From NCBI GenBank assembly GCA_020348925.1, contig CP070758.1:576469-640468 (forward strand): a stretch of 64,000 nt of DNA, written 5' to 3'. A program made the translations under genes and the position numbers. This DNA comes from Gemmatimonadota bacterium. GTDB taxonomy: Bacteria; JBHIER01; G020348925. Under the pieces are notes generated by a model, which saw only the letters and a list, made by a program, of their open reading frames with translations, was not told the origin of the DNA and did not search any database. Shown here in pieces: positions 23,486 to 60,164 of the stretch (position 1 is its first letter; every line of letters begins with the position of its first letter).

Positions 23486-23603
23486 TATATATTTCTCCGC
23501 TTAATTTGGAAGGGGCACAGGATCCACGAACTCAAGGATTCAAGTCCTTAAAGGGAGCGGTTCCATTGTGCCCTGATCCCTTGGTCCCTGGACTCCTCGA
23601 AGC

Positions 23604-38657: not shown

Positions 38658-38690
38658 TATGTTATCCGATTTCGTCAATCTCTGAATCGC

Positions 38691-39510: not shown

Positions 39511-39569
39511 CGCATTCCTGTAGATACAAAAATGTCGTCTAACCTCCCCTCGAAGGCCAACGAGTTAAA

Positions 39570-39757
39570 CGACACAGGCAGGTCTCCTGGCTCACGGTAT
39601 CACCTTCTCCCGACCTTCCCATCCTGTGATTCAGGACAGTGGTCCCACGGAGAAGCGGAGGAGCTGTGCTCCCTCAAACCGATTACAGTGGCGGGGCCGC
39701 GACGGAATCTCACCGTCTTCCCTTATTCTCCCCGAAGTATCGGGGCACCCGCGTCGA
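39570..39757 (-). ncRNA. Cobalamin riboswitch
   Basis: Minus strand GGGTGCC...AAGGGAAGACGGTGAGATTCCGTCGCGGCCCCGCCACTGTAA...CCACTG...GGGAAGG...GAGCCAGGAGACCTGCC (B12 box); closing stem CGACGCGGG/CCTGTGTCG. Confidence 0.95.
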
Positions 39758-39847
39758 TTCTCTTCAATTGTGCGCACAAAATAGAATAATACGACAGTAA
39801 AGTCAAGATGTTTTTCGGTCTTTAACGCCTTTTTTACGAAAAATCTC

Positions 39848-39950
39848 TTGATCGCCCAGTACATGTGTGCTGGGCGAAAAAGTATTTCGGGATTTCTATC
39901 CCGTCAAACTCTTACTACATCTCCAGGCCTCACGATTCGATCACCGCTTC
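39848..39950. repeat. Dispersed two-hairpin element, copy B
   Basis: Homologous to 11436-11538. Confidence 0.75.
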
Positions 39951-40045
39951 GGAACACCGACACTTCGTGCCTTCTGAACATCTCGACAACGAAAGAATGC
40001 AATGTCCCCGCACATTCTTAAGACGAAATATGTTCTTAAAATACC

Positions 40046-41236
40046 TCAACACCCCTCTCTTTTATACTGCCTTGTGAGTTGATCCTTCTTCTCAATGAAC
40101 CGAGGCTGCCCGCCAAAATATCTGCTGATCTTCATTCTCTTTTCCTTCTGGTCCTCATTCATTTCTGCCGAACCGGAAATATCGGGAAAGAGTATCGTTT
40201 CCATCCACGCGTTCAATCCACCTTTCAAACAATATATTTCTTCCGTACCGATTTCACCCAGAGCCATTAAAGTCTTTCTCGGAACTGTTCCATACTGGGT
40301 GTATACGATAATAACCTCCTTGTCGACGACGGATCCATCGCGCACGGAACCTTCCGGAGCGTGTTTGGCAAACGGGATATGATACGTTTCAAACTGCATT
40401 TTCGAACGCACGTCCAATATATCGAAATCGTCTTTCTTCTCCATGATCCGATCAGCCAGCTCCTGTACCTCAAGATATCTCAGGGTGACCCCATCAAACC
40501 TTTCCTCCAATACTGTGATGCTTGAGCCACGATTGTCCTTCGATGGATTTCCGACGACTGCACTGAACAAGGCAAGCACAAGGGCACCGAGGGCAAGCAC
40601 TCTTTGAAGGCGAAACTTTCCAGGCGAAATGCCCATGGCGTGACTGTTCTGTACTCGAAGCTTTCTCCGTTCAATGAGTTCGGCTCCGGCGAACCCTCCC
40701 AGCGCCATCATTACAACGCCCAATACGATGAGCCCTTGAGGAATGTGAAGCAACCGGGGAAATGTGACATGCCCCCATGAGGTGAAATACAAGACATCGT
40801 CAAAAAGCGCGAAGAGCTCTCCGAAAGCAAAAATCCCGAAAAATATCCCCAGCAGGGCAACGAGCCCGTCAATCTTCCCCGTGGCCGAAGCCACCAGGCA
40901 CGTCCCCGGACAGAGACCCCCTATCACAAAACCGACGCCGAAAATCAAACCGGCAATGAGCTGAGGAAAAACATACGTGGGATTGACATACACGAGCGAG
41001 TCGTCAACAAGACCCAACCAGGAAAGCCAAAAAAGACCGAGCATCGCCGTGACAATTGCCGTGAACATAACTTTGAAAAACGCAAGATCGGTAAAGTAGA
41101 ACTGGGCCGCCATTTTCTTCGCATTCCCCAGTCCACCTCTTTCCAAGAAAAAGCCGAAGGCAAAGCCAACGGCTAAGGCGACAACCAAACTGGCATCGAA
41201 ATTGAAAAAACCGAATTTATAGAACGGGGCTGTCAT
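40046..41236 (-). CDS. YeeE/YedE sulfur-compound transporter half fused to a rhodanese-like domain
   Basis: Probable start MTAPFYKFG overlaps the upstream stop; FGFFLERGG, GLCPGT; ILDVRS...FETYHIPFA, LKGGLNAW; ends KREGC. Confidence 0.85.
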   Translation of the reverse strand: MTAPFYKFGFFNFDASLVVALAVGFAFGFFLERGGLGNAKKMAAQFYFTDLAFFKVMFTAIVTAMLGLFWLSWLGLVDDSLVYVNPTYVFPQLIAGLIFGVGFVIGGLCPGTCLVASATGKIDGLVALLGIFFGIFAFGELFALFDDVLYFTSWGHVTFPRLLHIPQGLIVLGVVMMALGGFAGAELIERRKLRVQNSHAMGISPGKFRLQRVLALGALVLALFSAVVGNPSKDNRGSSITVLEERFDGVTLRYLEVQELADRIMEKKDDFDILDVRSKMQFETYHIPFAKHAPEGSVRDGSVVDKEVIIVYTQYGTVPRKTLMALGEIGTEEIYCLKGGLNAWMETILFPDISGSAEMNEDQKEKRMKISRYFGGQPRFIEKKDQLTRQYKREGC

Positions 41237-41808
41237 GTCCACTGCCTCCTTATAAAATGAGCCGCTGCATAAGCACCTACAAAAACGGAAATCATGAAAA
41301 TCCAGCTCCCGACGCTCAGGAGCGCACCGCCGGTCAACGCCTGCCCACTGGTGCACCCGCGGGCCATCTTGGCGGCAAAACCCATCAGTGCACCACCACC
41401 GAATGCGAAGAACAACCTGCCGGTCGAAGAGATCCTCGGTCCTCGGATTATCGACACCCGTAATCTTCCGGCAAGAAGGCCGGAGAGAAATCCACCGACG
41501 AGAACACCGAGAATTTCGAAAACGAGCCAATCCTTCAGAGGATTTTTGTTTTCGAGATACGTGCTGTACATTCCGTTCGCCTGCGCATGCTCTGGAGCTA
41601 ACGTGTGAACAGCCGTTGACACGATCGCCGTGTATCCTCCCGAGGCCCCCAGGCCACGACCCATTATGACAAAAGCGGCCAGCAGCGTAAGCCCCAACCC
41701 GATCCCGGCGAGATACGGATTCCAATACCTCCGAGGTGCTTTCTTCGTTCTTTCTCCTTCCTCCAAATCCGAACCGTACGTCTCGATATCATCACGTTCA
41801 GAGTACAT
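41233..41808 (-). CDS. YeeE/YedE family transporter (half-size)
   Basis: YWNPYLAGIGLG, GLGASG, ARGCTSGQALTGG. Confidence 0.9.
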   Translation of the reverse strand: MYSERDDIETYGSDLEEGERTKKAPRRYWNPYLAGIGLGLTLLAAFVIMGRGLGASGGYTAIVSTAVHTLAPEHAQANGMYSTYLENKNPLKDWLVFEILGVLVGGFLSGLLAGRLRVSIIRGPRISSTGRLFFAFGGGALMGFAAKMARGCTSGQALTGGALLSVGSWIFMISVFVGAYAAAHFIRRQWT

Positions 41809-41827
41809 ACCCCCTCCTTGGAGTCTG

Positions 41828-42760
41828 TTATTGATACGGTCGTATCTTCACAGGCTCTATTACCGGTAAAGTCTTATCACCGGTCCATTCCTGAAATGAG
41901 CCGTCGTAAAAGCGAACGTCATACCCGAGATACTTGGCCGCAAAGTAAACCGGGCTGGCCCATATTCCCGTACCGCAGTAGATCACTAAAACCGAGCCCG
42001 GTTTCGCACCGTTGTCCGAAAATATCTCGGCCAATTCCGCCGCATCTTTCAATTGAGACGGCGAGTCCTCAGTCATCAACTCAAAGAACGGTATATTGAA
42101 TGCTCCGGCAATATGTCCGCGTCTCTTAGAATGACTATCCCTTTCAATACCGGTGTACACCTCCTCCGGCCTGGCGTCTATGATGACGATATTTGGATTT
42201 CTGATATTGTCGTTGATCCATTTTCCATCGACAAAAACATCCGCATTCGGTCGAGGAGTATAATTTCCGGTTAATGCTTCCGGTAATTCTGCTGTCAGCT
42301 TCCGATTTTCGGCTTTCCATCGAGGAAACCCACCTTGAAGCATCGACGTACTGTCCCCCAGACCAGCATAATCCAGGGTGAGGAGAAGGCGGGTGGCCAA
42401 CGAAATTCCTCTTGATTCCGCATAATAGACCACAATCCTTGAAGTGTCACTCACCCCTGCTGATTTCAGAACGGAATCGAGTTTTGCGATGGGAGGCCTT
42501 TCGTGAAAGAGCCCATTCGGGGAATTCACAACAACCTCAAGCAGCGAAAAAATACGCGCACCAGGAATATGCTCCTTGTCATACCCCTCCTTTCTCCCGA
42601 CATGCAGGAGCAACAGAGAAGGATCGGCCAAGTGTTCTTCCAACCATTGCGTCGTGACAAACATTGATTCAACCGGACTTTTGCCGGAGACGGTTGATAT
42701 TGAAATGCATGAAAAGATGAGAATGGCTGCGATCGTAATCCTAAATCCCGGTTTATTCAT
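41828..42760 (-). CDS. Periplasmic two-domain sulfurtransferase (rhodanese/MST-like)
   Basis: Signal peptide; HIPGA; IIDARP; GHIAGA; active loop YCGTGIWAS; YDGSFQEW. Confidence 0.92.
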   Translation of the reverse strand: MNKPGFRITIAAILIFSCISISTVSGKSPVESMFVTTQWLEEHLADPSLLLLHVGRKEGYDKEHIPGARIFSLLEVVVNSPNGLFHERPPIAKLDSVLKSAGVSDTSRIVVYYAESRGISLATRLLLTLDYAGLGDSTSMLQGGFPRWKAENRKLTAELPEALTGNYTPRPNADVFVDGKWINDNIRNPNIVIIDARPEEVYTGIERDSHSKRRGHIAGAFNIPFFELMTEDSPSQLKDAAELAEIFSDNGAKPGSVLVIYCGTGIWASPVYFAAKYLGYDVRFYDGSFQEWTGDKTLPVIEPVKIRPYQ

Positions 42761-42853
42761 TTTTTCTCCTTGTAGCGTTCACCATTTTTTGAGCCATGAT
42801 ACCCTGATTGCCTCTCACAAGCTCGTTTGGGGGTTCACGATCCTTCGGCCATT

Positions 42854-44746
42854 TCAATCGAGCCTGGTTGCCGGCTGGTCTATACCGTTCTGGTGCAGCA
42901 CGAGGTGGGTGACTTGACCACGGCCGTCTTTCACAAACGTCAATTGCGCATCAATCAAGGCATAACAGAAGTCCGTCTCCGACTCCGCGTACATCTCGAG
43001 CTCCTGCTGACCCGTGAGCTGTGAGTAGAGTTTCCTCCCTTCAGCTTTGACGGAAAGAATGATCCCCGGAACGAACTCATACCGACCGGCGTAGGTTCGG
43101 AGAATTTCCGGATCCAATTCAATCACTTTGCGTCCGGCCGGTGGCTGAGTCTTTTGTGCGGCCGGCTTCCGTGTGTCGGCTTGGGTGGCAGGGGACGATT
43201 CCGTCAGATGTTCACGGGAGAGCATATGATCGAGATTTGCAATTCCCAGGGCCCCCCAAGCGATCACCGTTGCGGAGTGTTTCTGGTACTCGGGAACAAC
43301 CATATCATAGGTGTCGAATTGCGTGTGATGGCATCTCCAGTACGGGGTATCCCCCGACTGATCCCACATAAAGGACGGCACACCGGCCCCCAGAAAAACC
43401 ATGTGATCGCTCATACAAAATGCAGCGCGAGTCGAGCCACAGCCCGCATGTAAGGCCGCTTTTCCGCCAGGGGACGCCTCGGGGCTTCCGTTGCCCGAAG
43501 CGCATGACGGTGTCCTCGGGTTGGGATTGCAGCAGCTTGTAGAATACAAAGGCAGGCGGTCCACCTGTTCTATGTCAAAGGGCATATCCTGGTTCAGGGT
43601 TCTGACAGGAGAAAATATCCCCTCAAAATCTTCCACCATAGCCTCGGTGGCGAGAATGCCGGAAATGTAGTCGCTCCCGTAGTCCATGTTCAGGACGGCC
43701 GAGATTTGTGGCATCAGCTCTGAGTGATCGGCCACATACCCCTTGGAACCGAACAAGCCTTGCTCGTGACCGCCGAAGAGAATAAAGCGAATCGTTCTGC
43801 GGGGCCTGGCTCCGGATTCCATCAGTATTCGTGCCGCTTCCATGGCCGCGGCGACCCCTGTCCCGTTGTCGCAAGCGCCGCTGGCCCCATCCCAGGAATC
43901 CAGATGAGCCCCAACGATCACATATTCATGCGCCAGGTCCGTCCCGGGAATTTCGGCCACCACATTGTAGATGGGAATGGGACCCTTCTTAAAGTAATTC
44001 CGGATGTCAAAGGCGAGAACGACCTCTTCATTTTCAGATATGTAATTCGCAATCTCCTTCCACTCCTGTCCCGGGAGGATGATCACAGGAGTCTCCGGCA
44101 ACGCTTCCCATTCAATAAGATAGTTGCCGAAGGATTGCAGGAGCTCATCATCCACTGATGGAATGAGTACACCGGCTAGAGTGAGATTGAGTTCCTGTCC
44201 CTTTTTCAAATATTCGGCGCTCCTGCCTCTTTTTTTGTCGGGATCCCATACGATCCAAGATCCTTGAAATTCCGAACGTCTCGTCTCCAGTTCATCCACC
44301 GTCTCTGGCCCCATGACGGCACGCGCCACAACCCGACCGCTTGTTCCCGCTGTCCACGCCGGTGTGGTGAAATGGAGATCCTGGGTCACAGGGTTCATGA
44401 TGGATCCGTACGATTGCCCTCGATTGAAGCCGACCGGCATCTCAGCGCACTTCTCCAAATGGACGTTTGTCAAGCCGAAGCTTTGAAACCTGTCAAGGGC
44501 CCATTCACAGGCATTCCGCAGGTTGTCGGAACCCGTCAAACGCGGACCGATCCTGTTGGTCAGATGATCCAGGTGCTCCATGACTCTGTTGTCGTTTCTA
44601 CCAATTGTAAGAATGCGCTCCTGAAGATCCTGACCGTCGACGAGGGCGGATGTGCCGCAGAGGTATCCCGAAATAATAAAAATGATCACTATCATCAAGC
44701 CTGAGTAAGACCTCATAGTGACGAGACTTTCTCTTCCTTTTCTCAT
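42854..44746 (-). CDS. M28-family aminopeptidase homolog with Cys-rich insert and C-terminal DUF3471-like domain
   Basis: IGPRLTGS, GAHLDSWD, DNGTG, FGGHEQGLFGS, NMD, SDH, HHTQFDT; YAGRYEF domain. Confidence 0.9.
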   Translation of the reverse strand: MRKGRESLVTMRSYSGLMIVIIFIISGYLCGTSALVDGQDLQERILTIGRNDNRVMEHLDHLTNRIGPRLTGSDNLRNACEWALDRFQSFGLTNVHLEKCAEMPVGFNRGQSYGSIMNPVTQDLHFTTPAWTAGTSGRVVARAVMGPETVDELETRRSEFQGSWIVWDPDKKRGRSAEYLKKGQELNLTLAGVLIPSVDDELLQSFGNYLIEWEALPETPVIILPGQEWKEIANYISENEEVVLAFDIRNYFKKGPIPIYNVVAEIPGTDLAHEYVIVGAHLDSWDGASGACDNGTGVAAAMEAARILMESGARPRRTIRFILFGGHEQGLFGSKGYVADHSELMPQISAVLNMDYGSDYISGILATEAMVEDFEGIFSPVRTLNQDMPFDIEQVDRLPLYSTSCCNPNPRTPSCASGNGSPEASPGGKAALHAGCGSTRAAFCMSDHMVFLGAGVPSFMWDQSGDTPYWRCHHTQFDTYDMVVPEYQKHSATVIAWGALGIANLDHMLSREHLTESSPATQADTRKPAAQKTQPPAGRKVIELDPEILRTYAGRYEFVPGIILSVKAEGRKLYSQLTGQQELEMYAESETDFCYALIDAQLTFVKDGRGQVTHLVLHQNGIDQPATRLD

Positions 44747-44838
44747 TGAGTTCCTCCTTATCTCTGTGAAGCAGATACTCCGTTCTGGTCGGCCGGGCCT
44801 CCGGCATGGTCAACCGACTTAGTGTCTTGAATCCTTTT

Positions 44839-46002
44839 CTATTCTCCAGTAAGGAATGCTTCGATCTTTTCAATCACCGGTTTCGCGCCGAGATCATAAT
44901 TTGACATGACAGCCACAGTATACCCGGCATTCATGTACATGGCAAGGTGGGAATGTATCCCTGCAGCACCTCCACTGTGACCGATAATGCGTTGGCCGTT
45001 TACGATTCTTTCCTGGAAGAGATAGGCATATTTACGGTTCAAATCCTTCTTGATTTCTCCAGTCATCGTAGGAAGAGCTTCAACGACCTTTCCCTTGGTC
45101 AGTATTTCAAAGTGTTTCTTGTCAAGAAGCTTGTAATTCCGGAGTGCAATATCGAAGCGAAGAAGATCCTCGACGGTCGAATACCCGCCCCCTGCCGGGC
45201 ACCCCTTGGTGGGATTGGCAAAAAGATTATTGTGCCAGCTCTCGTATTGTCCACCGAAAATATTCATTTTGGTGTATCCAATGGCCAGATTCGGAACTGG
45301 TTCATCCATCTCGTAGCACTCGGTATCGATCATCCCTGCCGGTTCGGTCACATGCGATCGGATATAATCGTGATAACTCATTCCGGATATCCTCTCTATG
45401 ATGAGCCCGAGGACCAGGGGTCCGCAATTACTGTATTGAAATCGTTCTCCCGGCTCGAAATCGAGGGGTTTTGTGTTTGTCAAATCATCGAAATCCTTGA
45501 CGGTTTTCAACTGCGCCCATTGAGGGTTCTGAAAAAATTCCATCCAGTAGAGCCCCATACCGGAGGTGTGCGTCAGGAGATGGTGTATTGTGACTTTCTC
45601 TCTCACCTCCCGATTGGGGTAGTCGGGAAGATGCGCCCCGACGTAATCATCATAAGAAAGCTTTCCCCCTTGGACAAGCTGCGCTATCGCCACGCCGGTA
45701 AACATCTTGTTCATGGAACCGAGGTTGAACTTTGTGTCGACCCGGTTGGGAACGCCGTATCGTTTGCACGCTTCTCCTACGGCTCTTTTGTAAATCGGAA
45801 CGCCGTCTTTGGCAACGAGGACTGTTCCCGAGAAACGATCCTCCTCAACAAGTCGGTCGAGACACTCATCAATGACAGTGTTTATCTCTTGAGTTGTTTC
45901 TTCTATGGGAGACGCCTGCAGAAAAATTCCAGAAGAGATAAAGACTATGAAACCACATATGGAGACCGATGTGATTGTATGTAATAACAACGAGAAATTC
46001 AT
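44839..46002 (-). CDS. Serine hydrolase, beta-lactamase/D-aminopeptidase family
   Basis: GSMNK (SxxK), LLTHTSG, YSN, GHSGG. Confidence 0.92.
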   Translation of the reverse strand: MNFSLLLHTITSVSICGFIVFISSGIFLQASPIEETTQEINTVIDECLDRLVEEDRFSGTVLVAKDGVPIYKRAVGEACKRYGVPNRVDTKFNLGSMNKMFTGVAIAQLVQGGKLSYDDYVGAHLPDYPNREVREKVTIHHLLTHTSGMGLYWMEFFQNPQWAQLKTVKDFDDLTNTKPLDFEPGERFQYSNCGPLVLGLIIERISGMSYHDYIRSHVTEPAGMIDTECYEMDEPVPNLAIGYTKMNIFGGQYESWHNNLFANPTKGCPAGGGYSTVEDLLRFDIALRNYKLLDKKHFEILTKGKVVEALPTMTGEIKKDLNRKYAYLFQERIVNGQRIIGHSGGAAGIHSHLAMYMNAGYTVAVMSNYDLGAKPVIEKIEAFLTGE

Positions 46003-46049
46003 ATAGAAACCTCTTTTCGCTAAATCGACTCTTAATGATAATAGGGAGG

Positions 46050-47324
46050 TTAAATTAACCGGCGGAGTTTCAAACGGACTCTCTTTCGTTCTTCATCGCG
46101 CAGAATTTCAAGAGTTACCCAATCGCTTTCATTCTTCAACAACTCTTCGACGTCATCCTCCTTCACATGAACTGCCGGCAGATCATTAATTTCAGTGACG
46201 ACATCATTTGCCCGCAGCCCGGCTTCACTTGCAGGGGAATTCGGCACAACACGGTCAATTATAAAAGTACCCTTGTCAGTTTTTGTCAATTGTACTCCGG
46301 CCATGTTGAATTCGAAGGGATCGTTGTAATGCCTGTTGGGTTCCAGGATCATGAGCTCGTTGGTATAGTCGAAGATGACATGGAATCGACGAAGAACATC
46401 CGTCCCTAAATTTCCCTCCTTTCCCACCCCTCCCCCACCACAGGCAGCAAGTGCACCCGTGCTGAATGATGTCACAACATCCTCCAACGTGTATGGATCG
46501 AGAGTGAGACTCTTGATGCGACCGACGTATCCGTCCACATCACCACCGACACCTGTTCCCAAACGAAATTCGATGGCATTGTCAGGAACAACAATGCTCT
46601 CATGCGCTCCGACACTCAACGAAAGTGCATGGGTAGCCCCAAGATCCACAACAAGTTGCAGTGGAACTCTCTTTCCATCCGTCATTTCCACCGTGCAATC
46701 CAGATACGGAAAACCGCCATTGAAGGAGAGCGGCAGTTCCCGCCCGGAACCTGAGTATTTGAACCCCTCTGGTTCGGTCAGACGAATCACCATCTTCTCG
46801 AAGTCGATCTCAACAACAAAAAGACCGAACAGCGAATACCCGATGACTCCATCCATCTCAAATCGATTCTGAAAGGGATTGTTCGGCATCACGATAACGT
46901 TTTGATCCGTCAACTCCAAGCCGGGAAACTGAATCGTAACTCCCGTTGAAAAGTCGGCAGGAACCGGTTCACCTCCAGCACCACCGACCATGATCTGGCC
47001 CACGGACTCGAGATCAAGCTCCTCCACTCGTGCGTTGTCAAACAACATCGCACCAGGGATGGGACACCCGGTGTCTAAAACCAGTCGAAAATTTTTTCCA
47101 CCCACTTTCGCCTGAACAAGAACTTTATTCCTTTCCAACTCGAAAGGGATTGTTGCACTTCCATTATCGGATAACATCTTATATGTCCCACTCGAAAAAA
47201 CATTACCGCATTGTGCTTGTGTATTGGAATACATATTGGCGAGCAGGAAGACGGAAGTAGAAATTGTGATCAGTGTAAGTACCCTCATTCGTTTCCCCTT
47301 CAAAGGTGTTTGTTCTTCACTCAT
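46050..47324 (-). CDS. Secreted two-lobed aspartyl protease with PDZ domain
   Basis: LVLDTG and VVDLG, DGVIG, GNLG; PNSPASEAGL PDZ. Confidence 0.88.
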   Translation of the reverse strand: MSEEQTPLKGKRMRVLTLITISTSVFLLANMYSNTQAQCGNVFSSGTYKMLSDNGSATIPFELERNKVLVQAKVGGKNFRLVLDTGCPIPGAMLFDNARVEELDLESVGQIMVGGAGGEPVPADFSTGVTIQFPGLELTDQNVIVMPNNPFQNRFEMDGVIGYSLFGLFVVEIDFEKMVIRLTEPEGFKYSGSGRELPLSFNGGFPYLDCTVEMTDGKRVPLQLVVDLGATHALSLSVGAHESIVVPDNAIEFRLGTGVGGDVDGYVGRIKSLTLDPYTLEDVVTSFSTGALAACGGGGVGKEGNLGTDVLRRFHVIFDYTNELMILEPNRHYNDPFEFNMAGVQLTKTDKGTFIIDRVVPNSPASEAGLRANDVVTEINDLPAVHVKEDDVEELLKNESDWVTLEILRDEERKRVRLKLRRLI

Positions 47325-47406
47325 TTTTGCGAAAAGGGATGCAACTGATCAGAGAAAACTCAGTTACATCCCTGTTTTTTGGTGTAAGATAAGTCTAAAA
47401 CGATCC

Positions 47407-49467
47407 TCAGATACTGCGGCCGCAGCAGCTTTGCGTTTTCGAGGATGAACTTCCAGGCGGACAGCAATCCTTGCTCTGAGTCGGGCAGCAGCCGCTCTCC
47501 CCCTGCGGACAACAATCACCATTTCTTTGTCCGGCCGTGCAACATCCTGACGGACAACATCCGCTTGCTTTCGGATCCGGAGTCCCTGTTGTTTTCGAGC
47601 TGTGAGGATAATACCCCGTCTCAACTGATGTGGATTTGATCAGTGAGGATTGTTCCTCGAACAGGAACGAACCGGAGCCGGCAGGCTTCGATGACGTTTC
47701 ATCGTCAACCAAGTTTTCCCTTAAAAGCAGATGATCAAGGTTGGCAACGCCGAGTGCCGCCAGGGCAATCACTGTCGCGGAGTGCTTCTGGTATTTTGGA
47801 ATCACCTGCTCGTACGTGTCCCTTTGCGTATGTGGATAGTATGGAACAGGATTCTCACCCTGCTGCATCCACATGAAAGCCGGCACACCGGCCGCCAGAA
47901 ACTGAGCGTGATCGCTCGAACCCACCGCCTTGACAATCCGCTTGCGAGTAGTAGTAGCTTTCTCCTCAGCGGTCACGTTCTGTTTCGTAAAGGCTTGCCC
48001 TCCGCACCCACCACCTCCACATCCCCCACCTCCCTCTGTGTTTTTCACCAGGGACTGTCCTCCGCAGCCGCCACCCCCACCACCGCATCCTCCTCCACCC
48101 CCGCCTGAATCCGTCACAAGGGAGGGGCTTCCGCAGCCACCACCGCCGCATCCGCTATCGGCTATTTTTTCCTTGATAACAGTTTTGCCAACACCACCAA
48201 CCATCAGTGGAGAACGGGCCGGTCCGTTTCCACAGCAGTCTGTTATTGTCTGGGGCAGGCTCTCGACCAATCCAATTCCGAAAGGCATATCTTCATTCAG
48301 AGATTTGACCGGGGCGAAAATCTCCTTAAAATCCTCCAGCATCGGCTCGGTGGCAAGAATGCCTGAGATGTAATCGGCACCCTGGTCCATGTTGAACATG
48401 GCCGAAATTTTATCCAATTGATCTGAGTGGTCCGTTACATAGGCCCTCGAACCCAGCATGCCCACTTCTTCCCCAGCGAAGAGGACAAAACGGATTGTTC
48501 GTCGGGGACGGATTCCGGCCTCCGCGAGGATTCTCGCTGCCTCCATGGCAGCAGCCACACCAGTACCATTATCCGCAGCTCCCGTGGCTCCGTCGTGAGA
48601 ATCAAGATGCGCTCCGACGATCACATACTCATCCGGCAGCTCGGTACCGGGGATGTCTGCGACCACATTATAAATCGGTATCGGCCCTTTCTTGAAATAG
48701 TTCCGGATATCGAACTCAAGCGTAACCTCCTCACCTTCTCCCAACAGATCGGCTATCTCTTCCCATTCCTCCTGCAGAAGGATTATGCTGGGAGTCGTGG
48801 GTAGGTCGTCCCACTCGAGGCCTCGATAATTGCCAAAAGTATGAATGAATTCCCCCGAAGAAGGAAGGATGACACCTGCTACGTCAAAGTTCAGTTCATC
48901 CCATTTTTCGATGTACGATGCATTCTTCTCCGGGTCGTCGAAGGGACGCCACAGTATCCATCTCCCTTCGATATCCGCACCCATCTTCTCCAGGTCATCC
49001 TCGGATTCGGGGGCAAGTACAGCTCGAGCACTCGTACGACCACGAGTCCCCGCAGTCCAGGCATGGGTCGAGAAGTGAAGGCGCTTGTTCTTCGGCGACA
49101 GAATGGCTCCTGATGAGGTGCCGCGATTAAAGCCGATGGGAATTTCCGCAACCCGCTCCAGATGAGCATTGGACAGGCCGAAGCGTTTAAACTGATCGCG
49201 GGCCCATTCACTGGCTGTTTGATAGTTGTCCGAACCGGTTTGACGGGGTCCTATCCGGTTCGTAAGATGGTTCAGATGGTCCATGACTCTGCTGTCTTTT
49301 GTACCGACAGAAATGATCCGGTCATGAACAACGCCGCTTTCGATGAAGCTGGACTTTCCCGCATGGCTCTTTGCCATCATAGCGTTGTTGGATGTACACG
49401 AGATGATACCTGCGGCCAGAAACACAAAAGCAGCGAAATATACAAGAGTTCTCGATATTTTTCTCAT
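47407..49467 (-). CDS. M28-family lipoprotein aminopeptidase with Gly/Cys-rich insert and Cys-Cys-rich tail
   Basis: Start MRKISRT after GAGGAGG; lipobox IISC; GAHLDS, DNGTG, FAGEEVG, NMD, SDH; tail with six CC pairs. Confidence 0.9.
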   Translation of the reverse strand: MRKISRTLVYFAAFVFLAAGIISCTSNNAMMAKSHAGKSSFIESGVVHDRIISVGTKDSRVMDHLNHLTNRIGPRQTGSDNYQTASEWARDQFKRFGLSNAHLERVAEIPIGFNRGTSSGAILSPKNKRLHFSTHAWTAGTRGRTSARAVLAPESEDDLEKMGADIEGRWILWRPFDDPEKNASYIEKWDELNFDVAGVILPSSGEFIHTFGNYRGLEWDDLPTTPSIILLQEEWEEIADLLGEGEEVTLEFDIRNYFKKGPIPIYNVVADIPGTELPDEYVIVGAHLDSHDGATGAADNGTGVAAAMEAARILAEAGIRPRRTIRFVLFAGEEVGMLGSRAYVTDHSDQLDKISAMFNMDQGADYISGILATEPMLEDFKEIFAPVKSLNEDMPFGIGLVESLPQTITDCCGNGPARSPLMVGGVGKTVIKEKIADSGCGGGGCGSPSLVTDSGGGGGGCGGGGGGCGGQSLVKNTEGGGGCGGGGCGGQAFTKQNVTAEEKATTTRKRIVKAVGSSDHAQFLAAGVPAFMWMQQGENPVPYYPHTQRDTYEQVIPKYQKHSATVIALAALGVANLDHLLLRENLVDDETSSKPAGSGSFLFEEQSSLIKSTSVETGYYPHSSKTTGTPDPKASGCCPSGCCTAGQRNGDCCPQGESGCCPTQSKDCCPPGSSSSKTQSCCGRSI

Positions 49468-49594
49468 AAGCACCTCCTCTCTCATAAAATTACCATGACT
49501 GTCTGACGGCTTTTTCCATCTCAATTCCATGTCTCAGTTTATAACATTCGGACCACCTCCTATTACATCAGATCCCAACTTTATTATTCTCATC

Positions 49595-50053
49595 TTATAT
49601 CCTTGATTCTTGCACTGATCGAACCATGACCGTTGCCGTCTCGGGGCAGATTGTTGAAAATTCAGACGATTCTTTGATTTCGTCCGGGACAGAAGATCGA
49701 TTAACAGCACGAAATCCGAACCGTTTGAAATAGTGGTCGGCATCTGTGGTAATAAGATACACGTCTGACAATTCATTCGCTCTGGCCCATGACAGGCGAT
49801 TCTTTACAAGAGCTTCCCCGATCGATCTCTTTCGCCATTCAGAGTCAACCGCGCAGGAGCGCAGTAAACCGTGCGACCCATAAACTTCGATCCCGGCGAC
49901 TCCGATGATGTGATCTTGGGACTCAGCAACACAGTAGGACTCCTCAAAATGCTCATCAACGCCTTCAAGGGGAAGATTGGAGTCCAACAGCAATCCCTTC
50001 ACACTCTGTTCATCTTTACCCCGTGCAGGTCTTATGTGATATGATCGTTCCAT
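49595..50053 (-). CDS. arsN2: ArsN2-family GNAT N-acetyltransferase
   Basis: LP.EGV, GIEVYG..GLLRS.AV, YLITTDA..YF.RFGF, S.EF..ICP.TA.VM. Confidence 0.8.
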   Translation of the reverse strand: MERSYHIRPARGKDEQSVKGLLLDSNLPLEGVDEHFEESYCVAESQDHIIGVAGIEVYGSHGLLRSCAVDSEWRKRSIGEALVKNRLSWARANELSDVYLITTDADHYFKRFGFRAVNRSSVPDEIKESSEFSTICPETATVMVRSVQESRI

Positions 50054-50129
50054 TTTTCACATTTCAATCGAAATACGTTACACACAGCTTCTCCGGTCCG
50101 TATTCCCTTTGACTCAAAAACTCCCAAAA

Positions 50130-50146
50130 AGTTGCAAATGACAACT
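50130..50146. promoter_or_regulatory. Putative MarR operator upstream of arsN2
   Basis: AGTTGCAAATGACAACT (AGTTG-N7-CAACT). Confidence 0.7.
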
Positions 50147-50330
50147 ATAATTATCCGCAATCACTTCTTTGGAAAAACAATTCCACTTAGAGGTAATGCT
50201 GTACATTGAATGGAAGTGACTGGACCGGAGAAGCCTCAGCCACTTCATTGCTGCGGGCAGTTTTTCTTATCGGAACCGCCTCCTCTGAAGTTTCATACAT
50301 TGTCAGGCATTTGCATCCTTCAGCGGATAT

Positions 50331-52739
50331 TTACTCATACTTGATTGCATTTACCGGATTCGTCTTGGCGGCCTTGACAGCCTGATAGCTCACAGATACC
50401 ATCGCGATACATATGGCAAGAATTCCTGCCAGAAAAAACGTCTCCAGACCCATATGCAACCGATAGGGATAATTCTCAAGCCAGCGATACATGACGTAGT
50501 ATGCAATCGGCCAGGCAAGAATATTTGCGATTGCCACCAGAATCAGAAACTCTTTTGAAAACAATTGAACAATGCCCCCAATGGAAGCACCGAGGACTTT
50601 CCGAACTCCGATCTCCTTTGTCCGCTGCTCTACGGCGTACGAGGACATGCCGAACAGACCAAGGCACGCGAGAAAGACCGCCAATACACTGAAAGAGAGT
50701 GCAATATTACCCAGGTTCTCTTCGGCGCGATATTGGCCCTCAAGGGATTCGTCCAGGAAGTAGTAATCGAAGGGCCGACCGGGAGCGATTTCCTCCCATT
50801 TTTTCTTCAACTGAGCTATCGTCGTTGGTACATTGTCAGATGCGATCCGAACTGCAATAAGATTGAAACTGTGAGCGGCATTGCCGATAAAAAGTGGTTC
50901 GATTTCAATGTGGAGGGAGGCCAGATGAAAATCCTTGACCACACCGACGACCCTTCTCGGTGACCATTCCACCTGGCCCGCTCTCAGATTGACACGTCGC
51001 CTGATGATCTTTCCGATCGGGTCCTCCCAGCCGATTTCCCTGGCAGCCGTTTCATTGATGATTGCTGACTCCATGCTGTCCGTCGCAAATTCGGCAGAGA
51101 AATTCCTCCCGGCCACCATATCCATACCCATCGTTGAAATGAACCTGTCGTCAATATCCATCATCCTCATCATCTTTGTTTCATCTTCCGAAAATCCCTC
51201 CGGCAGAAAAGGTGCCATCATTCCGCCTCGGCCGGGGATCCCTGTTGATGCACTGACGTTTCTCACTCCAGGCAAACGGGCAAGCTCATTTCTGATTCCA
51301 TGAATGGGCAAACGTTCGGAATCACCAACATTTGGTAAAACAACTACGTGCTCTTTGTCAAAACCGAGCATTTTGTTTTTCATAAACCGTATCTGTTCGA
51401 ATACCGTCATCGTTCCAATGATGAGAGCGATGGAAATTGCAAACTGTGTGACGACGAGAACACTCCGAAATCGAGACTTCGAGGAACCGGTTCGAACACG
51501 ACCTTTCAAAGCCCTGACCGGTTGAAAGGATGACAGAAAGAAGGCGGGATAGCTGCCGGCGATAAACCCGACGAAGAGCGCCAATCCGACAAATCCAGGA
51601 AGGATCCACGGTTGTCGTATGTAGTTCACATGCAATTCGCACCCGGCGAGGGAGTTAAATATAGGCAGAGCCAAAGGGAGGAGTATTGATGCAAGAAAGA
51701 CAGAAAGCAAGCCGCAGATTATGGATTCACAAAGAAATTGCCCCACCAATTTGCCACGACTGGCTCCCAGTGTCTTTCTCATCCCGACCTCGTTGGCGCG
51801 CGTCGCCGAACGGGCCGTGGTGAGATTGATGAAGTTGATACAGGCTATCAGCAAAATAATGAAGGCAATCCCAGAGAACAGGTATACATAGACAATATCT
51901 CCTCTTCCTCCGGGATCGCTCTGGAGATTCGAGCGGAGATGGATGCTGGTTATGGGTTGGAGAAACAGCTCCAATGTGCCTCCGACCGCTCTCAACTTTT
52001 CGCCGGAGTATGTTTCGACGAAGTCGGGGAGCTTTCGCTCCAGGTTCTTGGGGTCGCTTCCTTGAGCGAGCAGAAGATACGTATAATAGCCCAACCATCC
52101 CCAGACCTCCATTCCTGGGCGCTTCTCAGCGTACAGCGTTTCGAAGGAACAGAGCACATCAAACGTAATATGCGAATTCTGAGGCACATTATGTATGACG
52201 CCCGTAACGGTGAAGTTCGTCTCTCCGTCGAATTCGAGAATCTTACCAACCGGATCTTCTTCATCGAAGAACTGACGGGCCACATCTTCGGTAAGGACGA
52301 CCGAATGGGCGGTCAAGAGCGCAGAAGCAGGATCACCGCTTATCATGGGGAATGTCAACACTTCAAAAATCGAGCTGTCGGCATAGCGAACCTCCTCAAT
52401 TTGGAGTTGCTTGTCTCCGTGCTTCACTGAGGAACTGGACTCAGGCGTAATCCTGACGGCGTTGACAACCTCCGGATAATCCCGGATCAGACCAAGTGCC
52501 ATAGGAGGGCTCGTCATCGGCGCACGCCGATTCGCTCCACCGAGAGTGAGATCCGTGCCCAGACGGTATATTCGATCCGCTTTCGTATGAAACCGGTCAA
52601 AACCCAGTTCATTGGCAATCCACAACATAATCAAAAGGCAGCACATGATACCAATAGCCAGACCCGCTATGTTTAAAAAGGAATACATTTTAAACTTTCT
52701 GAAATTTCGAACGGCGACTTTCACATAGTTTTCATACAT
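50331..52739 (-). CDS. MacB/FtsX-family ABC transporter permease (duplicated)
   Basis: SFLNIAGLAIG, ACINFINL, EVGMRKTLGA, RTKEIGVRKVLGAS, NPVNAIKYE. Confidence 0.93.
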   Translation of the reverse strand: MYENYVKVAVRNFRKFKMYSFLNIAGLAIGIMCCLLIMLWIANELGFDRFHTKADRIYRLGTDLTLGGANRRAPMTSPPMALGLIRDYPEVVNAVRITPESSSSVKHGDKQLQIEEVRYADSSIFEVLTFPMISGDPASALLTAHSVVLTEDVARQFFDEEDPVGKILEFDGETNFTVTGVIHNVPQNSHITFDVLCSFETLYAEKRPGMEVWGWLGYYTYLLLAQGSDPKNLERKLPDFVETYSGEKLRAVGGTLELFLQPITSIHLRSNLQSDPGGRGDIVYVYLFSGIAFIILLIACINFINLTTARSATRANEVGMRKTLGASRGKLVGQFLCESIICGLLSVFLASILLPLALPIFNSLAGCELHVNYIRQPWILPGFVGLALFVGFIAGSYPAFFLSSFQPVRALKGRVRTGSSKSRFRSVLVVTQFAISIALIIGTMTVFEQIRFMKNKMLGFDKEHVVVLPNVGDSERLPIHGIRNELARLPGVRNVSASTGIPGRGGMMAPFLPEGFSEDETKMMRMMDIDDRFISTMGMDMVAGRNFSAEFATDSMESAIINETAAREIGWEDPIGKIIRRRVNLRAGQVEWSPRRVVGVVKDFHLASLHIEIEPLFIGNAAHSFNLIAVRIASDNVPTTIAQLKKKWEEIAPGRPFDYYFLDESLEGQYRAEENLGNIALSFSVLAVFLACLGLFGMSSYAVEQRTKEIGVRKVLGASIGGIVQLFSKEFLILVAIANILAWPIAYYVMYRWLENYPYRLHMGLETFFLAGILAICIAMVSVSYQAVKAAKTNPVNAIKYE

Positions 52740-52826
52740 CCGCAATTTATCCTAAAGTATCTATCCCATTCGTATCAGTTATTGTTTCCTGAGAGAATGC
52801 AAACGACATTCCGAAGTTTCAATGTT

Positions 52827-53516
52827 TTAAAGATGAAATGTATTCACATCGTTTTCAGCAATAAGCCTACCGTCAAAAATGTGGACTGTTCTGTTGCAGA
52901 ACTCCGCGTATGCTGGGGAATGCGTCACCATAAGGATGGTCGTTCCACCCTCATTCAACATTTTCAACAGATTCATTACATCATCGCCATGTGTTGAATC
53001 GAGATTTCCTGTCGGCTCATCAGCCAGAATAAGTTTTGGATGAGCGACGACGGCCCGAGCCACGGCAACCCTTTGCTGCTGGCCACCTGATAATTGCACA
53101 GGAAAATGATTTCTCCGGGCCATTATCTCCATTCGATCAAGAATTTCATCCACACGCCTCTTCCGTTCAGAGCCGGCTATTCCTAAATAGAGAAGGGGCA
53201 GTTCGACATTCTCGAAGACGGTCAACTCGTCGATCAGATTGAAGCTTTGAAAAACAAAACCGATATTGCCTTTTCGAAACTGAGCTCGACGCCTTTCCGA
53301 GTACTGTGTGACATCTTCACCGAGTAAGAGATATGTTCCCTCCGTCGGATTATCCAGAAGACCCAACAGATGGAGAAGAGTCGATTTACCGCATCCGGAA
53401 GGTCCCATAATGGCCGTGAACTCGCCCTCTTTCACCTCTAAATTGACGCTGTCGAGGGCGGTCGTTTCAACCTCATCAGTGTAAAACACCTTTTTCAAAT
53501 TGTCTGTTCGAATCAT
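52827..53516 (-). CDS. ABC transporter ATP-binding protein (LolD/MacB type)
   Basis: GPSGCGKST, LSGGQQQR, ILADEPTGNLD, VTH. Confidence 0.95.
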   Translation of the reverse strand: MIRTDNLKKVFYTDEVETTALDSVNLEVKEGEFTAIMGPSGCGKSTLLHLLGLLDNPTEGTYLLLGEDVTQYSERRRAQFRKGNIGFVFQSFNLIDELTVFENVELPLLYLGIAGSERKRRVDEILDRMEIMARRNHFPVQLSGGQQQRVAVARAVVAHPKLILADEPTGNLDSTHGDDVMNLLKMLNEGGTTILMVTHSPAYAEFCNRTVHIFDGRLIAENDVNTFHL

Positions 53517-53614
53517 ATCTGTGTCCTTTCTGTCAAAACGCGAGGAGATTTTCTCTATAAAAGTTACTCAGGCCCTATTCTATTCTACTCAATTTGACAC
53601 ATATCGGAAATTAA

Positions 53615-53631
53615 AGTTGCAGGTGACAACT
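53615..53631. promoter_or_regulatory. Putative MarR operator upstream of the ABC genes
   Basis: AGTTGCAGGTGACAACT, 15/17 identical to the 50130 site. Confidence 0.7.
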
Positions 53632-53676
53632 AAAATTTCCACATTCTTCTCATTTTCAGAAAGGGTGTATTTGTTC

Positions 53677-54165
53677 TTAAGGTGAGGAAAATCGTTTTGA
53701 TGCTGCGCGCGCCAGTCGAGCGACGAGACGGATAGTGGCCTGTCTTATGTCCGGATCGAAGTCAGTGATCATCTTCTTCATCTCACCGGCCAACTCCTTC
53801 TCAATCCTGTCATGGAGGTCCTTGCCCCGCTGAGTCACCTCAAGGCGCAAGGCCCGGCCATCTTTTGGATCCGCCGAGCGTTTGACGTAGCCTTTGCGCT
53901 CCAAGGAGTCAACGACTCTACTGGTCGTGCTTTTGTCGAGGAAAAGCTCGGCAGCCAGCATATTCAACGACATCGTGCCGAGACGAGAAAGTGCGTCTAT
54001 GGCGTAGCACTGGGTTATAGAAACATCCTGGTAGCAAATGCGTTTGCGGTCTCGAAACTGATACACCCGAACGAGCTCGCTCAAGGCCTCATGGAGCTCC
54101 CAGGCATCCTGTTCAAGGGTATTGCCCTGAATGAGACTTCCCGATTCTTTCGCGGTTGATGGCAT
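53677..54165 (-). CDS. MarR-family regulator with Cys-bearing N-terminal motif
   Basis: YQFRDRKRICYQDVSITQCY; LAAELFLDKSTTSRVVDSLERKGYV.R..DPKDGR. Confidence 0.92.
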   Translation of the reverse strand: MPSTAKESGSLIQGNTLEQDAWELHEALSELVRVYQFRDRKRICYQDVSITQCYAIDALSRLGTMSLNMLAAELFLDKSTTSRVVDSLERKGYVKRSADPKDGRALRLEVTQRGKDLHDRIEKELAGEMKKMITDFDPDIRQATIRLVARLARAASKRFSSP

Positions 54166-54196
54166 AAATTCACTCCTCACTCGAATCGCACATTAT

Positions 54197-54239
54197 CATT
54201 GTTACTAACAACAATAATGTCCGACGCGCCTCTTGTCAA
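54197..54239 (-). promoter_or_regulatory. marR promoter with an overlapping degenerate operator
   Basis: Minus strand TTGACA-17-TATTGT; CATTG-N7-CAACA (54197-54213) overlaps the -10. Confidence 0.6.
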
Positions 54240-54424
54240 TACTTTTTTCATAGGAACGGGGAAGGTTGGATTTGATGGCCAAAAAACCTTGAATCCTACG
54301 TAATCAGAGGTGCAAAAAATATTTATGAGCAAAACTTATCTTCAGTTGTCAAGCGCCTAAAGGAAATGTGAACTTATGCCTAAGATCGCAGAATTATAGC
54401 GTTCCACGCCAATTTAAAAAAAAC

Positions 54425-54498: not shown

Positions 54499-55008
54499 AT
54501 GATTGAAGAACTCAAAGAGATGCGAGATGTAGCCGTCGAGGATTTTGGGAAAGCTTACAATAACTGGGGATTGAGCAAACTGAAGGGCAGAATCGTCGGA
54601 TTACTCCTTTTCAACCAGATGCCTCTATCCTTGGATGATATTGCCAACGAGCTTCATGTTACAAAGGGTTCTGTGAGCACTGTCGCTCGTCAATTGGAGG
54701 AGGGCGGTCTCATTCGTAAAGTCTGGGTGAAAGGGGATAGAAAAGATTACTATGAGATTGTATCGGATGTTTTTAGCACTACGAGCGAACACAATCTCAA
54801 ACTGTTAAAGGATAATCTACTCATTGCACAGAAGTATAAAAACTTTTTGTCGAGAATACTGGATTCGGCTTCACCTGAGGACAAATTGGAACTGGAGGTC
54901 TATCTCGACAGAATGACCGAAATGCAAGAGTTCTATGCTATGTTGGTCGATACGTTTGAAAGATTTATCACAGAGTGGAAGGGGAAATTCGAAGTAGCTA
55001 TGCAGTGA
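54499..55008 (+). CDS. GbsR/MarR-family transcriptional regulator
   Basis: WGLSKLKGRIVGLL...PLSLDDIA..L.VTKGSVS...VKGDRKDYY. Confidence 0.88.
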   Translation: MIEELKEMRDVAVEDFGKAYNNWGLSKLKGRIVGLLLFNQMPLSLDDIANELHVTKGSVSTVARQLEEGGLIRKVWVKGDRKDYYEIVSDVFSTTSEHNLKLLKDNLLIAQKYKNFLSRILDSASPEDKLELEVYLDRMTEMQEFYAMLVDTFERFITEWKGKFEVAMQ

Positions 55009-55082
55009 GTATCGGTTAACAGGCGGAATACTTTTTTCAGCTTCTCAAAATTTAAATCGATTCTTCCTCTTTGAGAGGGATC

Positions 55083-55883: not shown

Positions 55884-55912
55884 GATTGCTATTTCCATGA
55901 AGGAACGGAAAA

Positions 55913-56653: not shown

Positions 56654-56682
56654 AACAGGAACTCTTCTCAGGAGAATATATT

Positions 56683-58573: not shown

Positions 58574-58584
58574 GGACTATCAGC

Positions 58585-60117: not shown

Positions 60118-60164
60118 TGGGAGGATACGCTGGACGTTTGCGAGCAAGAGAAGAATGCTATCAC

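Follow-up and report, generated by a model that had tools for sequence, protein, structure and literature searches.

A string of eleven co-oriented genes occupies the minus strand (40046-54180) of a 64,000-nucleotide stretch from an uncultured sediment bacterium of the Gemmatimonadota (GenBank assembly GCA_020348925.1, contig CP070758.1, positions 576,469 to 640,468; henceforth the window). It is headed by a gene for a MarR-family repressor and includes genes for an ABC exporter, an ArsN2-type GNAT, four hydrolases and a rhodanese/YeeE module. Based on the family of the regulator, on a predicted operator common to three promoters, and on the recurrence of ArsN2, M28 peptidase and rhodanese/YeeE genes beside related regulators in other genomes, we lean towards the view that this locus is the regulon of a MarR_ars-type repressor, that is, of a member of a family sensing thiophilic metalloids. 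An earlier reading made from the DNA letters alone (the sequence-only reading) had proposed eleven same-strand genes with named domains, and these were upheld with Pfam and NCBIfam, from which the following assignments are taken:

53677-54165, minus strand: MarR-family repressor, 162 aa from an ATG after GGAG (Pfam MarR_2, PF12802, 2e-14; PF01047, 7.7e-13)
52827-53516, minus strand: ABC exporter ATPase, resembling the nucleotide-binding domains of DarD/LolD/MacB (PF00005, 1.4e-36)
50331-52745, minus strand: ADOP-like FtsX permease in duplicate, its periplasmic part made up of two MacB-like core domains (two stretches each of PF12704 and PF02687)
49595-50053, minus strand: ArsN2-type GNAT (NF040501, 146 bits, cut-off 125)
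47407-49530, minus strand: M28A, M28 metallopeptidase of the carboxypeptidase-Q-like type, probable lipoprotein signal (PF04389, 1.4e-37)
47983-48162, minus strand: Gly/Cys repeats within the insertion of M28A, three imperfect 51-nt direct repeats with start spacings of 60 and 69 nt (repeat search and translation)
46050-47324, minus strand: exported aspartic protease of the two-lobed retropepsin-like type, ending in a PDZ domain (PF13650, Asp_protease_2, two stretches, plus PDZ)
44839-46002, minus strand: exported beta-lactamase-fold serine hydrolase (PF00144, 2.4e-58)
42854-44746, minus strand: M28B, a paralogue of M28A with a C-terminal DUF3471 (Pfam and alignment)
41828-42760, minus strand: exported tandem rhodanese, 310 aa (PF00581, two stretches)
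41233-41808, minus strand: YeeE/YedE half-transporter, the C-terminal-type half of PF04143 (3.1e-25)
40046-41236, minus strand: YeeE/YedE half-transporter fused to a rhodanese-homology domain (PF04143, 1.3e-15, and PF00581)

The 559-aa open reading frame (ORF) that covers the last gene (40046-41725) is over-extended, the true start lying in a 4-base overlap with the stop of the YeeE half before it. From ArsN2 to the last gene the intergenic gaps measure -4 to 93 bp, and no terminator-like site was predicted in the intergenic gaps of the string before position 39903. N-terminal signal-like segments are visible by eye in M28A, M28B, the Asp-PDZ protease, the serine hydrolase and the tandem rhodanese; ArsN2 shows no visible signal peptide.

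The comparison set comprised 43 loci from GTDB representative genomes, retrieved by patterns from the N-terminal motif of the MarR protein, 80 metagenome loci and 41 genomes chosen by taxonomy. In 34 of the 43 GTDB loci the 260 bp before the MarR relative contain an exact GTTG-N7-CAAC palindrome, and in 31 the 260 bp after it do; these marR-flanking sites make up 65 of the 79 exact matches to the palindrome in 710,745 bases. The same palindromes flank marR in the ars loci of two Deinococcus plasmids, where 2 and 3 matches compare with expectations of 0.18 and 0.12. A position weight matrix (PWM) built solely from the 65 exact sites of the 43 foreign loci was scanned over the whole 5.04 Mb genome. 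Its four best matches score 28.2, 24.7, 23.7 and 19.2 bits, the fifth reaching 18.2; the first lies 27.8 kb before the start of the window and the next three belong to the locus:

54194-54216, minus strand: operator O1 at the MarR gene, an imperfect GTTG-N7-CAAT palindrome (19.2 bits with the foreign-site PWM, genome rank 4)
54239-54234 (-35) and 54216-54211 (-10), minus strand: MarR promoter (promoter-like site prediction)
53612-53634, minus strand: operator O2, GTTG-N7-CAAC, about 96 bp upstream of the ABC ATPase start (23.7 bits, genome rank 3)
50127-50149, minus strand: operator O3, GTTG-N7-CAAC, about 75 bp upstream of the ArsN2 start (24.7 bits, genome rank 2)

O1, whose palindrome spans 15 bp, starts at and overlaps the -10 hexamer of the MarR promoter, which implies autoregulation. 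The regions around O2 and O3 have a 25-nt stretch in common (88% identity), and chance is ruled out for the predicted operator because its 17-nt core has exactly two occurrences in the 5.04 Mb at up to one mismatch, both of them within the locus. None of the other intergenic gaps of the locus has a PWM score above -5 bits. The three copies therefore point to three regulated promoters, namely those of MarR, of the ABC pair, and of ArsN2 together with the genes co-transcribed with it. The shared operator of the sequence-only reading thus stands, limited to three promoters, as a predicted MarR operator that is evolutionarily conserved.

About 65 bp downstream of the best-scoring site in the genome (C1:548666-548688; L140 6667-6689; 28.2 bits) begins a minus-strand gene whose product is an exported DUF5916 protein of 770 aa; genes for a TauE/SafE protein, an FMN reductase, an M19 dipeptidase and a LysE exporter come after it. 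This unit probably belongs to the predicted regulon too. Its FMN reductase was considered as a candidate ArsH and set aside, having no NCBIfam match.

The genes placed directly downstream of the MarR relatives identify the regulator family. At the 43 GTDB loci, whose regulators are 48-69% identical to the window MarR, this position is occupied by ArsN2 in 12 cases, by ArsM in six (360-366 bits, cut-off 263), by flavin monooxygenases in four and by ArsN1 in two (227 and 237 bits, cut-off 170). A Latescibacterota locus (L103, 10552-11922) has an ArsN2::ArsM fusion after the MarR relative (ArsM 366.6 bits, cut-off 263; ArsN2 124.7 bits, cut-off 125), and a likely fusion of the same kind, with both parts under the cut-off (ArsM 239 bits, ArsN2 122.3 bits), is encoded in a Planctomycetota locus (L109, 1190-2420). 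MarR-ArsN2 pairs also occur on two Deinococcus plasmids, within loci annotated as ars. According to the main text of Yu et al. (bioRxiv 10.1101/2021.08.12.456183), AdMarR_ars of Achromobacter sp. As-55 represses marR and arsV, is released by As(III)/Sb(III) and requires Cys36, Cys37 and Cys157, and MarR_ars is cast there as a regulator of arsenic-antibiotic resistance; a term search of that main text returned no operator, palindrome, inverted repeat or footprint. The window MarR, in which Pfam recognizes the winged-helix fold, is comparable to this MarR_ars/ArsV system (Yu et al. 2021) in several respects: it is a repressor beside arsenic genes, ArsN2 being the first gene of the next-but-one unit after MarR; its operators predict autoregulation plus control of an adjacent target promoter; its relatives lie upstream of arsN, arsM and a flavin monooxygenase, as in Fig. 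1 of Yu et al.; and it retains the first of the two vicinal cysteines. It differs in its targets, which here are ArsN2, Cys-rich M28 peptidases, rhodanese/YeeE and an ABC pump rather than ArsV.

A maximum-likelihood tree of 46 rows, from which a truncated sequence (L139) and a near copy of L099 (L036) were left out, divides the regulators into two groups, although its root is arbitrary and neither group fork reaches the strict support mark of the tool. Group I (support 92/87) unites the window with all nine ArsN2+M28 rows, four of the six M28-only rows, the three ArsN2+rhodanese rows and three others, and group II (94/79) holds all ArsM, ArsN1 and monooxygenase rows. Taken together, the window MarR appears to be a divergent relative of, or sister to, the As(III)/Sb(III)-responsive MarR_ars subfamily.

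The identification of ArsN2 in the sequence-only reading was confirmed, the protein scoring 146 bits with NF040501 against an equivalog cut-off of 125, and it is the only copy above that cut-off in the genome. It is related to N-acetylglutamate synthase and has a C-terminal Cys-Pro that is invariant in an alignment of 17 sequences; Nadar et al. 2019 (PMC6465285) describe ArsN2 as the arsN clade nearest the glutamate N-acetyltransferases. It thus resembles the clade 2 arsN products of ars operons in that same account, both in passing the equivalog cut-off and in its 37-40% identity to annotated plasmid ArsN2, as well as in the MarR-ArsN2 pairing of the Deinococcus ars plasmids. Unlike them, it has no adjacent acr3, arsB or arsC and is followed by exported peptidases. 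The absence of these pump and reductase genes, already stated in the sequence-only reading, holds for the whole window, in which no Acr3, ArsB or ArsC was found, and the locus in this sense falls outside those ars operons that include an arsenite pump or a reductase. Elsewhere in the genome, about 420 kb from the window, there is an Acr3 operon (C1:201508-204364) coding for an ArsR with a CVC motif, Acr3 (369 bits; C1:201966-203081) and a permease; two ArsM genes are found at C1:3007072 and C1:2739600, and no ArsB was found in the genome.

We then examined which parts of the cluster recur beside related regulators. MarR-(ArsN2)-M28 arrangements in which the peptidase has a Cys-bearing insertion are present in 11 of the 43 GTDB loci, from several phyla, six of them with ArsN2 (L097, L099, L101, L104, L105 and L108) and five without (L106, L107, L110, L113 and L116). 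Further examples come from metagenomes (L041, L053 and L082/L084); two contigs, L018 and L036, are probable duplicates of L106 and L099, and a first metagenome scan using M28A alone returned no relative. A second arrangement, MarR-ArsN2-rhodanese with or without YeeE, is seen in three of the 43 loci, belonging to three phyla (L100, L112 and L138), with rhodanese orthologues 36-49% identical to that of the window. The fullest of these, from Cytophagia (L100), comprises MarR, ArsN2, HgcA (414 bits, cut-off 275), a ferredoxin ORF at the position of HgcB, the rhodanese and both YeeE genes, the last three being 49% (rhodanese), 74% (YeeE half) and 51% (YeeE-rhodanese) identical to their window counterparts. 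Of the remaining genes, the one immediately after the MarR relative codes for a PF00144 hydrolase in L132 and L136, and an ADOP-like permease lies 8 kb away from the regulator in L102; an ABC exporter directly downstream of MarR was found in no other locus. Because each module recurs separately elsewhere, the window cluster is, on gene content, the union of an ArsN2-M28 and an ArsN2-rhodanese/YeeE module, with putative lineage-specific additions, namely the ABC pump with its duplicated operator, the Asp-PDZ protease, the serine hydrolase and the second M28. The ABC pair looks to have been inserted between MarR and ArsN2 along with a second copy of the ArsN2-type operator. Peptidases of other families are also found at related loci, a papain-like C1 after the M28 (L036, L099) and a C25 beside L053, and these, together with the M19 dipeptidase in the unit behind the best-scoring operator site of the window's genome, suggest that a proteolytic step is a recurrent theme. 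In the literature that was searched, a search with subscription papers and preprint supplements outside it, the ArsN2-M28 pairing, the operator and the group I branch are undescribed; on MarR_ars itself only the preprint of Yu et al. turned up, and none of the papers listed on YeeE with rhodanese and arsenic deals with a cluster of this kind, going by title and opening of the abstract.

The unusual Cys enrichment reported for the locus in the sequence-only reading is confined to the two M28 paralogues: M28A has 21 Cys (3.0%) and M28B has 11 (1.75%), whereas the other nine genes range from 0.5 to 2.0% against a genome mean of 1.27%. With seven vicinal CC pairs M28A ranks first among the 2658 ORFs of at least 200 aa in the genome. 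Its Gly/Cys-rich insertion spans residues 427-536, with 8 Cys in residues 420-544, and its C-terminal tail contains 12 Cys, mostly in CC pairs. As in the carboxypeptidase Q-like M28 peptidases, the name that M28A homologues bear, the five zinc-ligand positions and the general-base Glu are retained in M28A: H308, D320, E354-E355, D382 and H541 are conserved, H308, D320, E355 and D382 being invariant and H541 nearly invariant in the alignment. M28B is 58% identical to M28A in the core and has a shorter Cys-bearing insertion with 5 Cys. In M28B a His replaces the first Glu of the EE pair, the presumed general base, which is kept in M28A and 13 aligned relatives, and on this account M28B may be altered or inactive. 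Besides this substitution, the window proteins depart from carboxypeptidase Q-like enzymes by the insertion before the last His ligand, and some members of the set also by CC-rich tails. In a metagenome scan the usual M28 relatives have a Cys-free loop of 7-10 residues before the last zinc-binding His, and the Cys-bearing insertion, 16-129 residues long, takes the place of this loop. It is present in all four MarR-linked relatives versus two of 43 non-MarR relatives (those in which 700 bp or more of upstream sequence hold no MarR), and in three of the 29 non-evaluable ones. The insertions of the GTDB-locus M28 proteins contain 2-9 Cys and start with a vicinal pair in 10 of 15 sequences, and CC-rich tails are carried by M28A (12 Cys) and by the proteins of L099 (14), L097 (9), L116 (5), L101 (4) and L053 (3), six others being without one.

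Among the remaining products, the ABC ATPase scores 270 bits with NF038007 (cut-off 375), and the permease is likewise below the cut-off of every model it matches (TIGR03434, ADOP, 310 versus 622 bits; NF038008, 165 versus 700; NF007826, 23.5 versus 966). The MacB permease of the sequence-only reading is accordingly borne out in its MacB core and FtsX domains and in its separate PF00005 ATPase, but it is ADOP-like rather than a canonical MacB, and no membrane-fusion gene was found beside the exporter among the neighbors scanned with Pfam. The SxxK, YxN and HxG motifs of the serine hydrolase are present by eye. Inspection by eye also places a six-residue Cys active-site loop of the TST/MST type in the C-terminal domain of the tandem rhodanese (NF008557, 108 bits, below the cut-off of 250) and none in its N-terminal domain, and finds the rhodanese-homology domain fused to YeeE to be without a catalytic Cys. 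The YeeE proteins are comparable to the YeeE/YeeD (TsuA/TsuB) thiosulfate uptake system in belonging to the PF04143 family and in having the Cys-containing GC and CPG motifs, again by eye; they are unlike it in that the transporter is split in two genes, the second fused to the Cys-less rhodanese, and in that no small TusA-like ORF lies downstream of the YeeE genes, where the space holds the cobalamin riboswitch of the next unit. The best TsuA equivalog model scores 43 bits against a cut-off of 400. A selenium role for the YeeE and rhodanese genes was set aside, the YedE/FdhT model giving 44.5 versus 350 bits and ExtH 55.5 versus 200.

In light of these observations, we propose that a MarR dimer would sit on the three operators as a repressor until a thiol-reactive soft species modifies its two remaining cysteines and brings about its release. 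The likeliest inducers would be trivalent As or Sb or an organoarsenical such as MAs(III), and possibly Hg(II); a pair of MarR thiolates would be apt for MAs(III) or Hg(II), or else for a redox/persulfide switch. The ArsN2 promoter might then drive a putative unit of about 10 kb that extends to the YeeE-rhodanese gene. In the cytoplasm ArsN2 would N-acetylate an amino-acid-type substrate, and outside it the exported M28 peptidases could bind the metalloid through the vicinal-Cys insertion and tail and process envelope peptides. To supply thiols or for thiolation, thiosulfate or sulfane sulfur may be taken in or handed on by the exported rhodanese and the split YeeE channel, and a product would leave the cell through the ABC pump. 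The metalloid-responsive wiring of this scheme is supported by the predicted operator and the family of the regulator, and the biochemical roles are those that we infer for the individual products.

Several observations weigh against this proposal, beginning with the regulator itself. The invariance of the N-terminal MarR motif, including the Cys of TQC, is by construction, because the GTDB loci were fetched with patterns from that very motif. The window MarR has its cysteines at ORF positions 49 and 58, with a Tyr (CY) in place of the second vicinal Cys and no C-terminal Cys, and two of the three cysteines of MarR_ars are thus apparently missing; the correspondence to Cys36, Cys37 and Cys157 was drawn through alignment with a Deinococcus member, the Achromobacter sequence not being in the alignment. 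That canonical-type member, from a D. taeanensis plasmid, is 28% identical to the window MarR, with CC where the latter has CY and with a C-terminal Cys. Across the 48 aligned regulators the second vicinal Cys is found in 24 and the C-terminal Cys in about 29; in group I, 13 of 18 rows are without a C-terminal Cys or CC, and four of 18 lack even the first Cys of the pair. Furthermore, group I as a whole forms a branch apart from the regulators linked to ArsM, ArsN1 and monooxygenases. The gene cluster poses a comparable difficulty: the full set of eleven genes was found in none of the 43 GTDB and none of the 80 metagenome loci and is absent from the sole genome of the same family; no other locus in these two sets joins M28 with rhodanese/YeeE; and the Asp-PDZ protease has no tblastn match in either of them. 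The same-family genome, which is 87% complete, also lacks the regulator (best match 40.5 versus 285 bits) and an M28A orthologue, and the M28 homologues of two taxonomic relatives (G013 and G016) have no neighbors in common with the window. Finally, there are sigma-70-like sites inside the long unit, for example at 44945-44917, so that internal promoters are possible.

The claims of the sequence-only reading are qualified by this balance. Its Cys-bearing MarR regulator of the arsenic type retains the family link, on the strength of neighbors, operator and tree, and loses apparently two of the three sensing cysteines; the phylogenetic comparison it called for puts the window MarR in the same family as the ars-associated regulators and on a separate branch, group I as opposed to group II. 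The combination that it did not recognize as described is found as a whole only here, with recurring sub-modules and no full cluster elsewhere. The wiring of its putative metalloid-responsive envelope system is backed by the regulator family, the operator and the recurrence of ArsN2, M28 and rhodanese/YeeE genes beside the regulator, whereas the eleven-gene combination, the Asp-PDZ protease and the position of the ABC exporter are not recurrent. The functions it assigned to that system, namely breakdown of peptides carrying the metalloid, chelation, thiolation and export, are putative.

The reduced cysteine set raises the alternative of a reactive-sulfur or thiol-stress regulon, in which the two cysteines of the group I MarR would act as a persulfide/disulfide switch over sulfur handling and Cys-rich envelope proteins, much as in the CstR, BigR and SqrR regulons. 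We consider it unlikely. The C-Y...C pattern of the window MarR without a C-terminal Cys, and the loss of the vicinal pair in most of group I, would fit such a switch, as would the rhodanese/YeeE targets in three group I loci, the TauE/SafE-family gene in the unit behind the best operator of the genome, and the ResA-like thiol-disulfide oxidoreductase that adjoins the regulator in L115; yet the commonest first target, in nine of the 15 group I GTDB loci, is ArsN2, an arsenic-operon equivalog that exceeds its cut-off, and the operator matches that of the ArsM- and ArsN1-linked loci and of the Deinococcus ars plasmids. Nor was any persulfide dioxygenase or sulfide:quinone oxidoreductase seen in the annotated loci, in which only part of the genes was scanned. 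Vicinal Cys pairs are, moreover, classic ligands of trivalent arsenicals and Hg(II), as in ArsD, ArsR and MerT.

If, on the other hand, only MarR, the ABC exporter and ArsN2 were linked, the four hydrolases and the rhodanese/YeeE genes would be ordinary genes lying downstream by accident, which we hold to be quite unlikely. Such an explanation would account for the restriction of the operators to three promoters, for the 47-93 bp gaps and promoter-like sites within the string, and for the uniqueness of the full cluster with its never-recurring Asp-PDZ protease, and it gains from the sheer frequency of carboxypeptidase Q-like M28 peptidases (2477 matches at E <= 1e-10). What it fails to predict is that an M28 should follow MarR/ArsN2 in 11 of the 43 loci, drawn only from the subclade with the Cys-bearing insertion (4/4 versus 2/43), that a rhodanese should follow ArsN2 in three loci of three phyla, including a YeeE pair 74% and 51% identical to that of the window in L100, and that the intergenic gaps of the string should be free of terminator-like sites.

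Very unlikely, in our estimation, is a defense against an arsenic-containing amino-acid or peptide antibiotic of the arsinothricin kind, for instance a glutamate analogue delivered in peptide form, with the exported glutamate-carboxypeptidase-like M28 enzymes cleaving the carrier outside, the NAGS-like ArsN2 acetylating any warhead that gets in and the ABC pump expelling it, for although ArsN2 is the arsN clade closest to the glutamate N-acetyltransferases (PMC6465285), sister regulators control ArsN1, the arsinothricin acetyltransferase, MarR_ars has been tied to arsenic-antibiotic resistance in the text of Yu et al. (bioRxiv 10.1101/2021.08.12.456183), and extra peptidases occur at related sites (papain C1 in L036 and L099, C25 beside L053, M19 behind the best-scoring operator site of the window's genome), it leaves the rhodanese/YeeE genes, the linkage to hgcAB and the vicinal-Cys tails unexplained and takes the Glu specificity of M28 from the family name only, the substrate of ArsN2 being likewise assumed.

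Returning to the preferred MarR_ars-type regulon, a more specific and speculative version, which we consider unlikely, is that the M28 proteins constitute a new metalloid-handling envelope class within a bacterial mercapturate-like route formed with ArsN2, the further peptidases and the exporters, under a two-Cys MarR_ars branch that senses species other than inorganic As(III). Trivalent arsenicals or Hg(II) that reach the periplasm would be trapped by the vicinal-Cys insertion beside the active site and by the CC-repeat tails; thiol-peptide conjugates might be trimmed to a cysteine or glutamate-analogue conjugate, N-acetylated and expelled; and the MarR branch would sense MAs(III), Hg(II) or a thiolated arsenical and in some lineages also govern hgcAB. 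If these proposals are correct, the arsenic-responsive MarR subfamily would be extended by a sequence-defined operator and by a second branch with a reduced Cys set, whose new targets are ArsN2, a Cys-rich exported M28, rhodanese/YeeE and, in three loci, hgcAB. The pairing of ArsN2 with a single peptidase subclade would offer a concrete route to the substrate of ArsN2, and the vicinal-Cys tails would be candidate periplasmic metalloid binders in anaerobic sediment bacteria.

The linkage to hgcAB would bring a second regulator family into the question of how mercury methylation is controlled and how it is tied to arsenic. Three group I MarR relatives flank hgcAB (L098, L115 and L100). L098 has the order operator, HgcA (440 bits), HgcB, MarR; in L115 the operator precedes an ORF ending in HgcB, the ResA-like thiol-disulfide oxidoreductase and MarR. 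Zhang et al. 2023 (PMC10349881) report that in two cultured methylators hgcA is preceded by MarR-family genes; ArsR-like control of hgcAB is attributed to Gionfriddo et al. 2023, as cited in PMC10349881. The present case is comparable to the latter in that an arsenic-type repressor is wired to non-classical targets, with relatives of the window MarR flanking hgcAB; it is unlike it in that the regulator is a MarR and not an ArsR, and in that the organism's own hgcAB lies about 160 kb off and has no operator site. The genome does encode an HgcA (C1:456678-457996; L144 7679-8997; 418 bits, cut-off 275) with an adjoining ferredoxin, by which the organism is a putative mercury methylator; in the 15 kb around this hgcAB there is no MarR or ArsR gene and no operator site (best PWM score 6.1 bits).

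The locus is bounded downstream by a unit for B12 uptake, in which the riboswitch is followed by an ECF S-component (38691-39233) and a TonB-dependent receptor (36423-38678):

39888-39903, minus strand: weak terminator-like hairpin after the last gene of the locus (terminator-like site prediction)
39560-39767, minus strand: cobalamin riboswitch opening the next unit (Rfam RF00174, 114 bits)

An assembled sequencing run (X2), probably from the source's own campaign, covers 39800-54400 with eight pieces at more than 99% identity, the segment 47896-48129, at the Gly/Cys repeat, being covered by none of them; runs X3-X5, from a second study, contributed fragments of 151-305 bp only. These pieces show that the locus is present and say nothing on its structure.

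On the other side of the MarR gene, a second and divergent MarR-family gene (54499-55008, plus strand) codes for a CudC-like protein (59 bits, below cut-off), and is followed at 55071-63000 on the same strand by genes for two alpha/beta hydrolases, an SDR, a KAS III, a sodium:solute symporter, a lipase and an AMP-binding enzyme. Further away in the window, a minus-strand set (20283-24260) of an MttB-family methyltransferase, a corrinoid protein, a pterin-binding protein and a homocysteine S-methyltransferase points to methyl transfer of the methylamine or betaine type. Two minus-strand segments (11926-14215 and 16662-19151) account for three SCPU (spore coat U) genes together with a PapD-like chaperone and, nearby, for a protein of 829 aa that combines MopE-type metal-binding motifs with a dockerin and a beta-helix.

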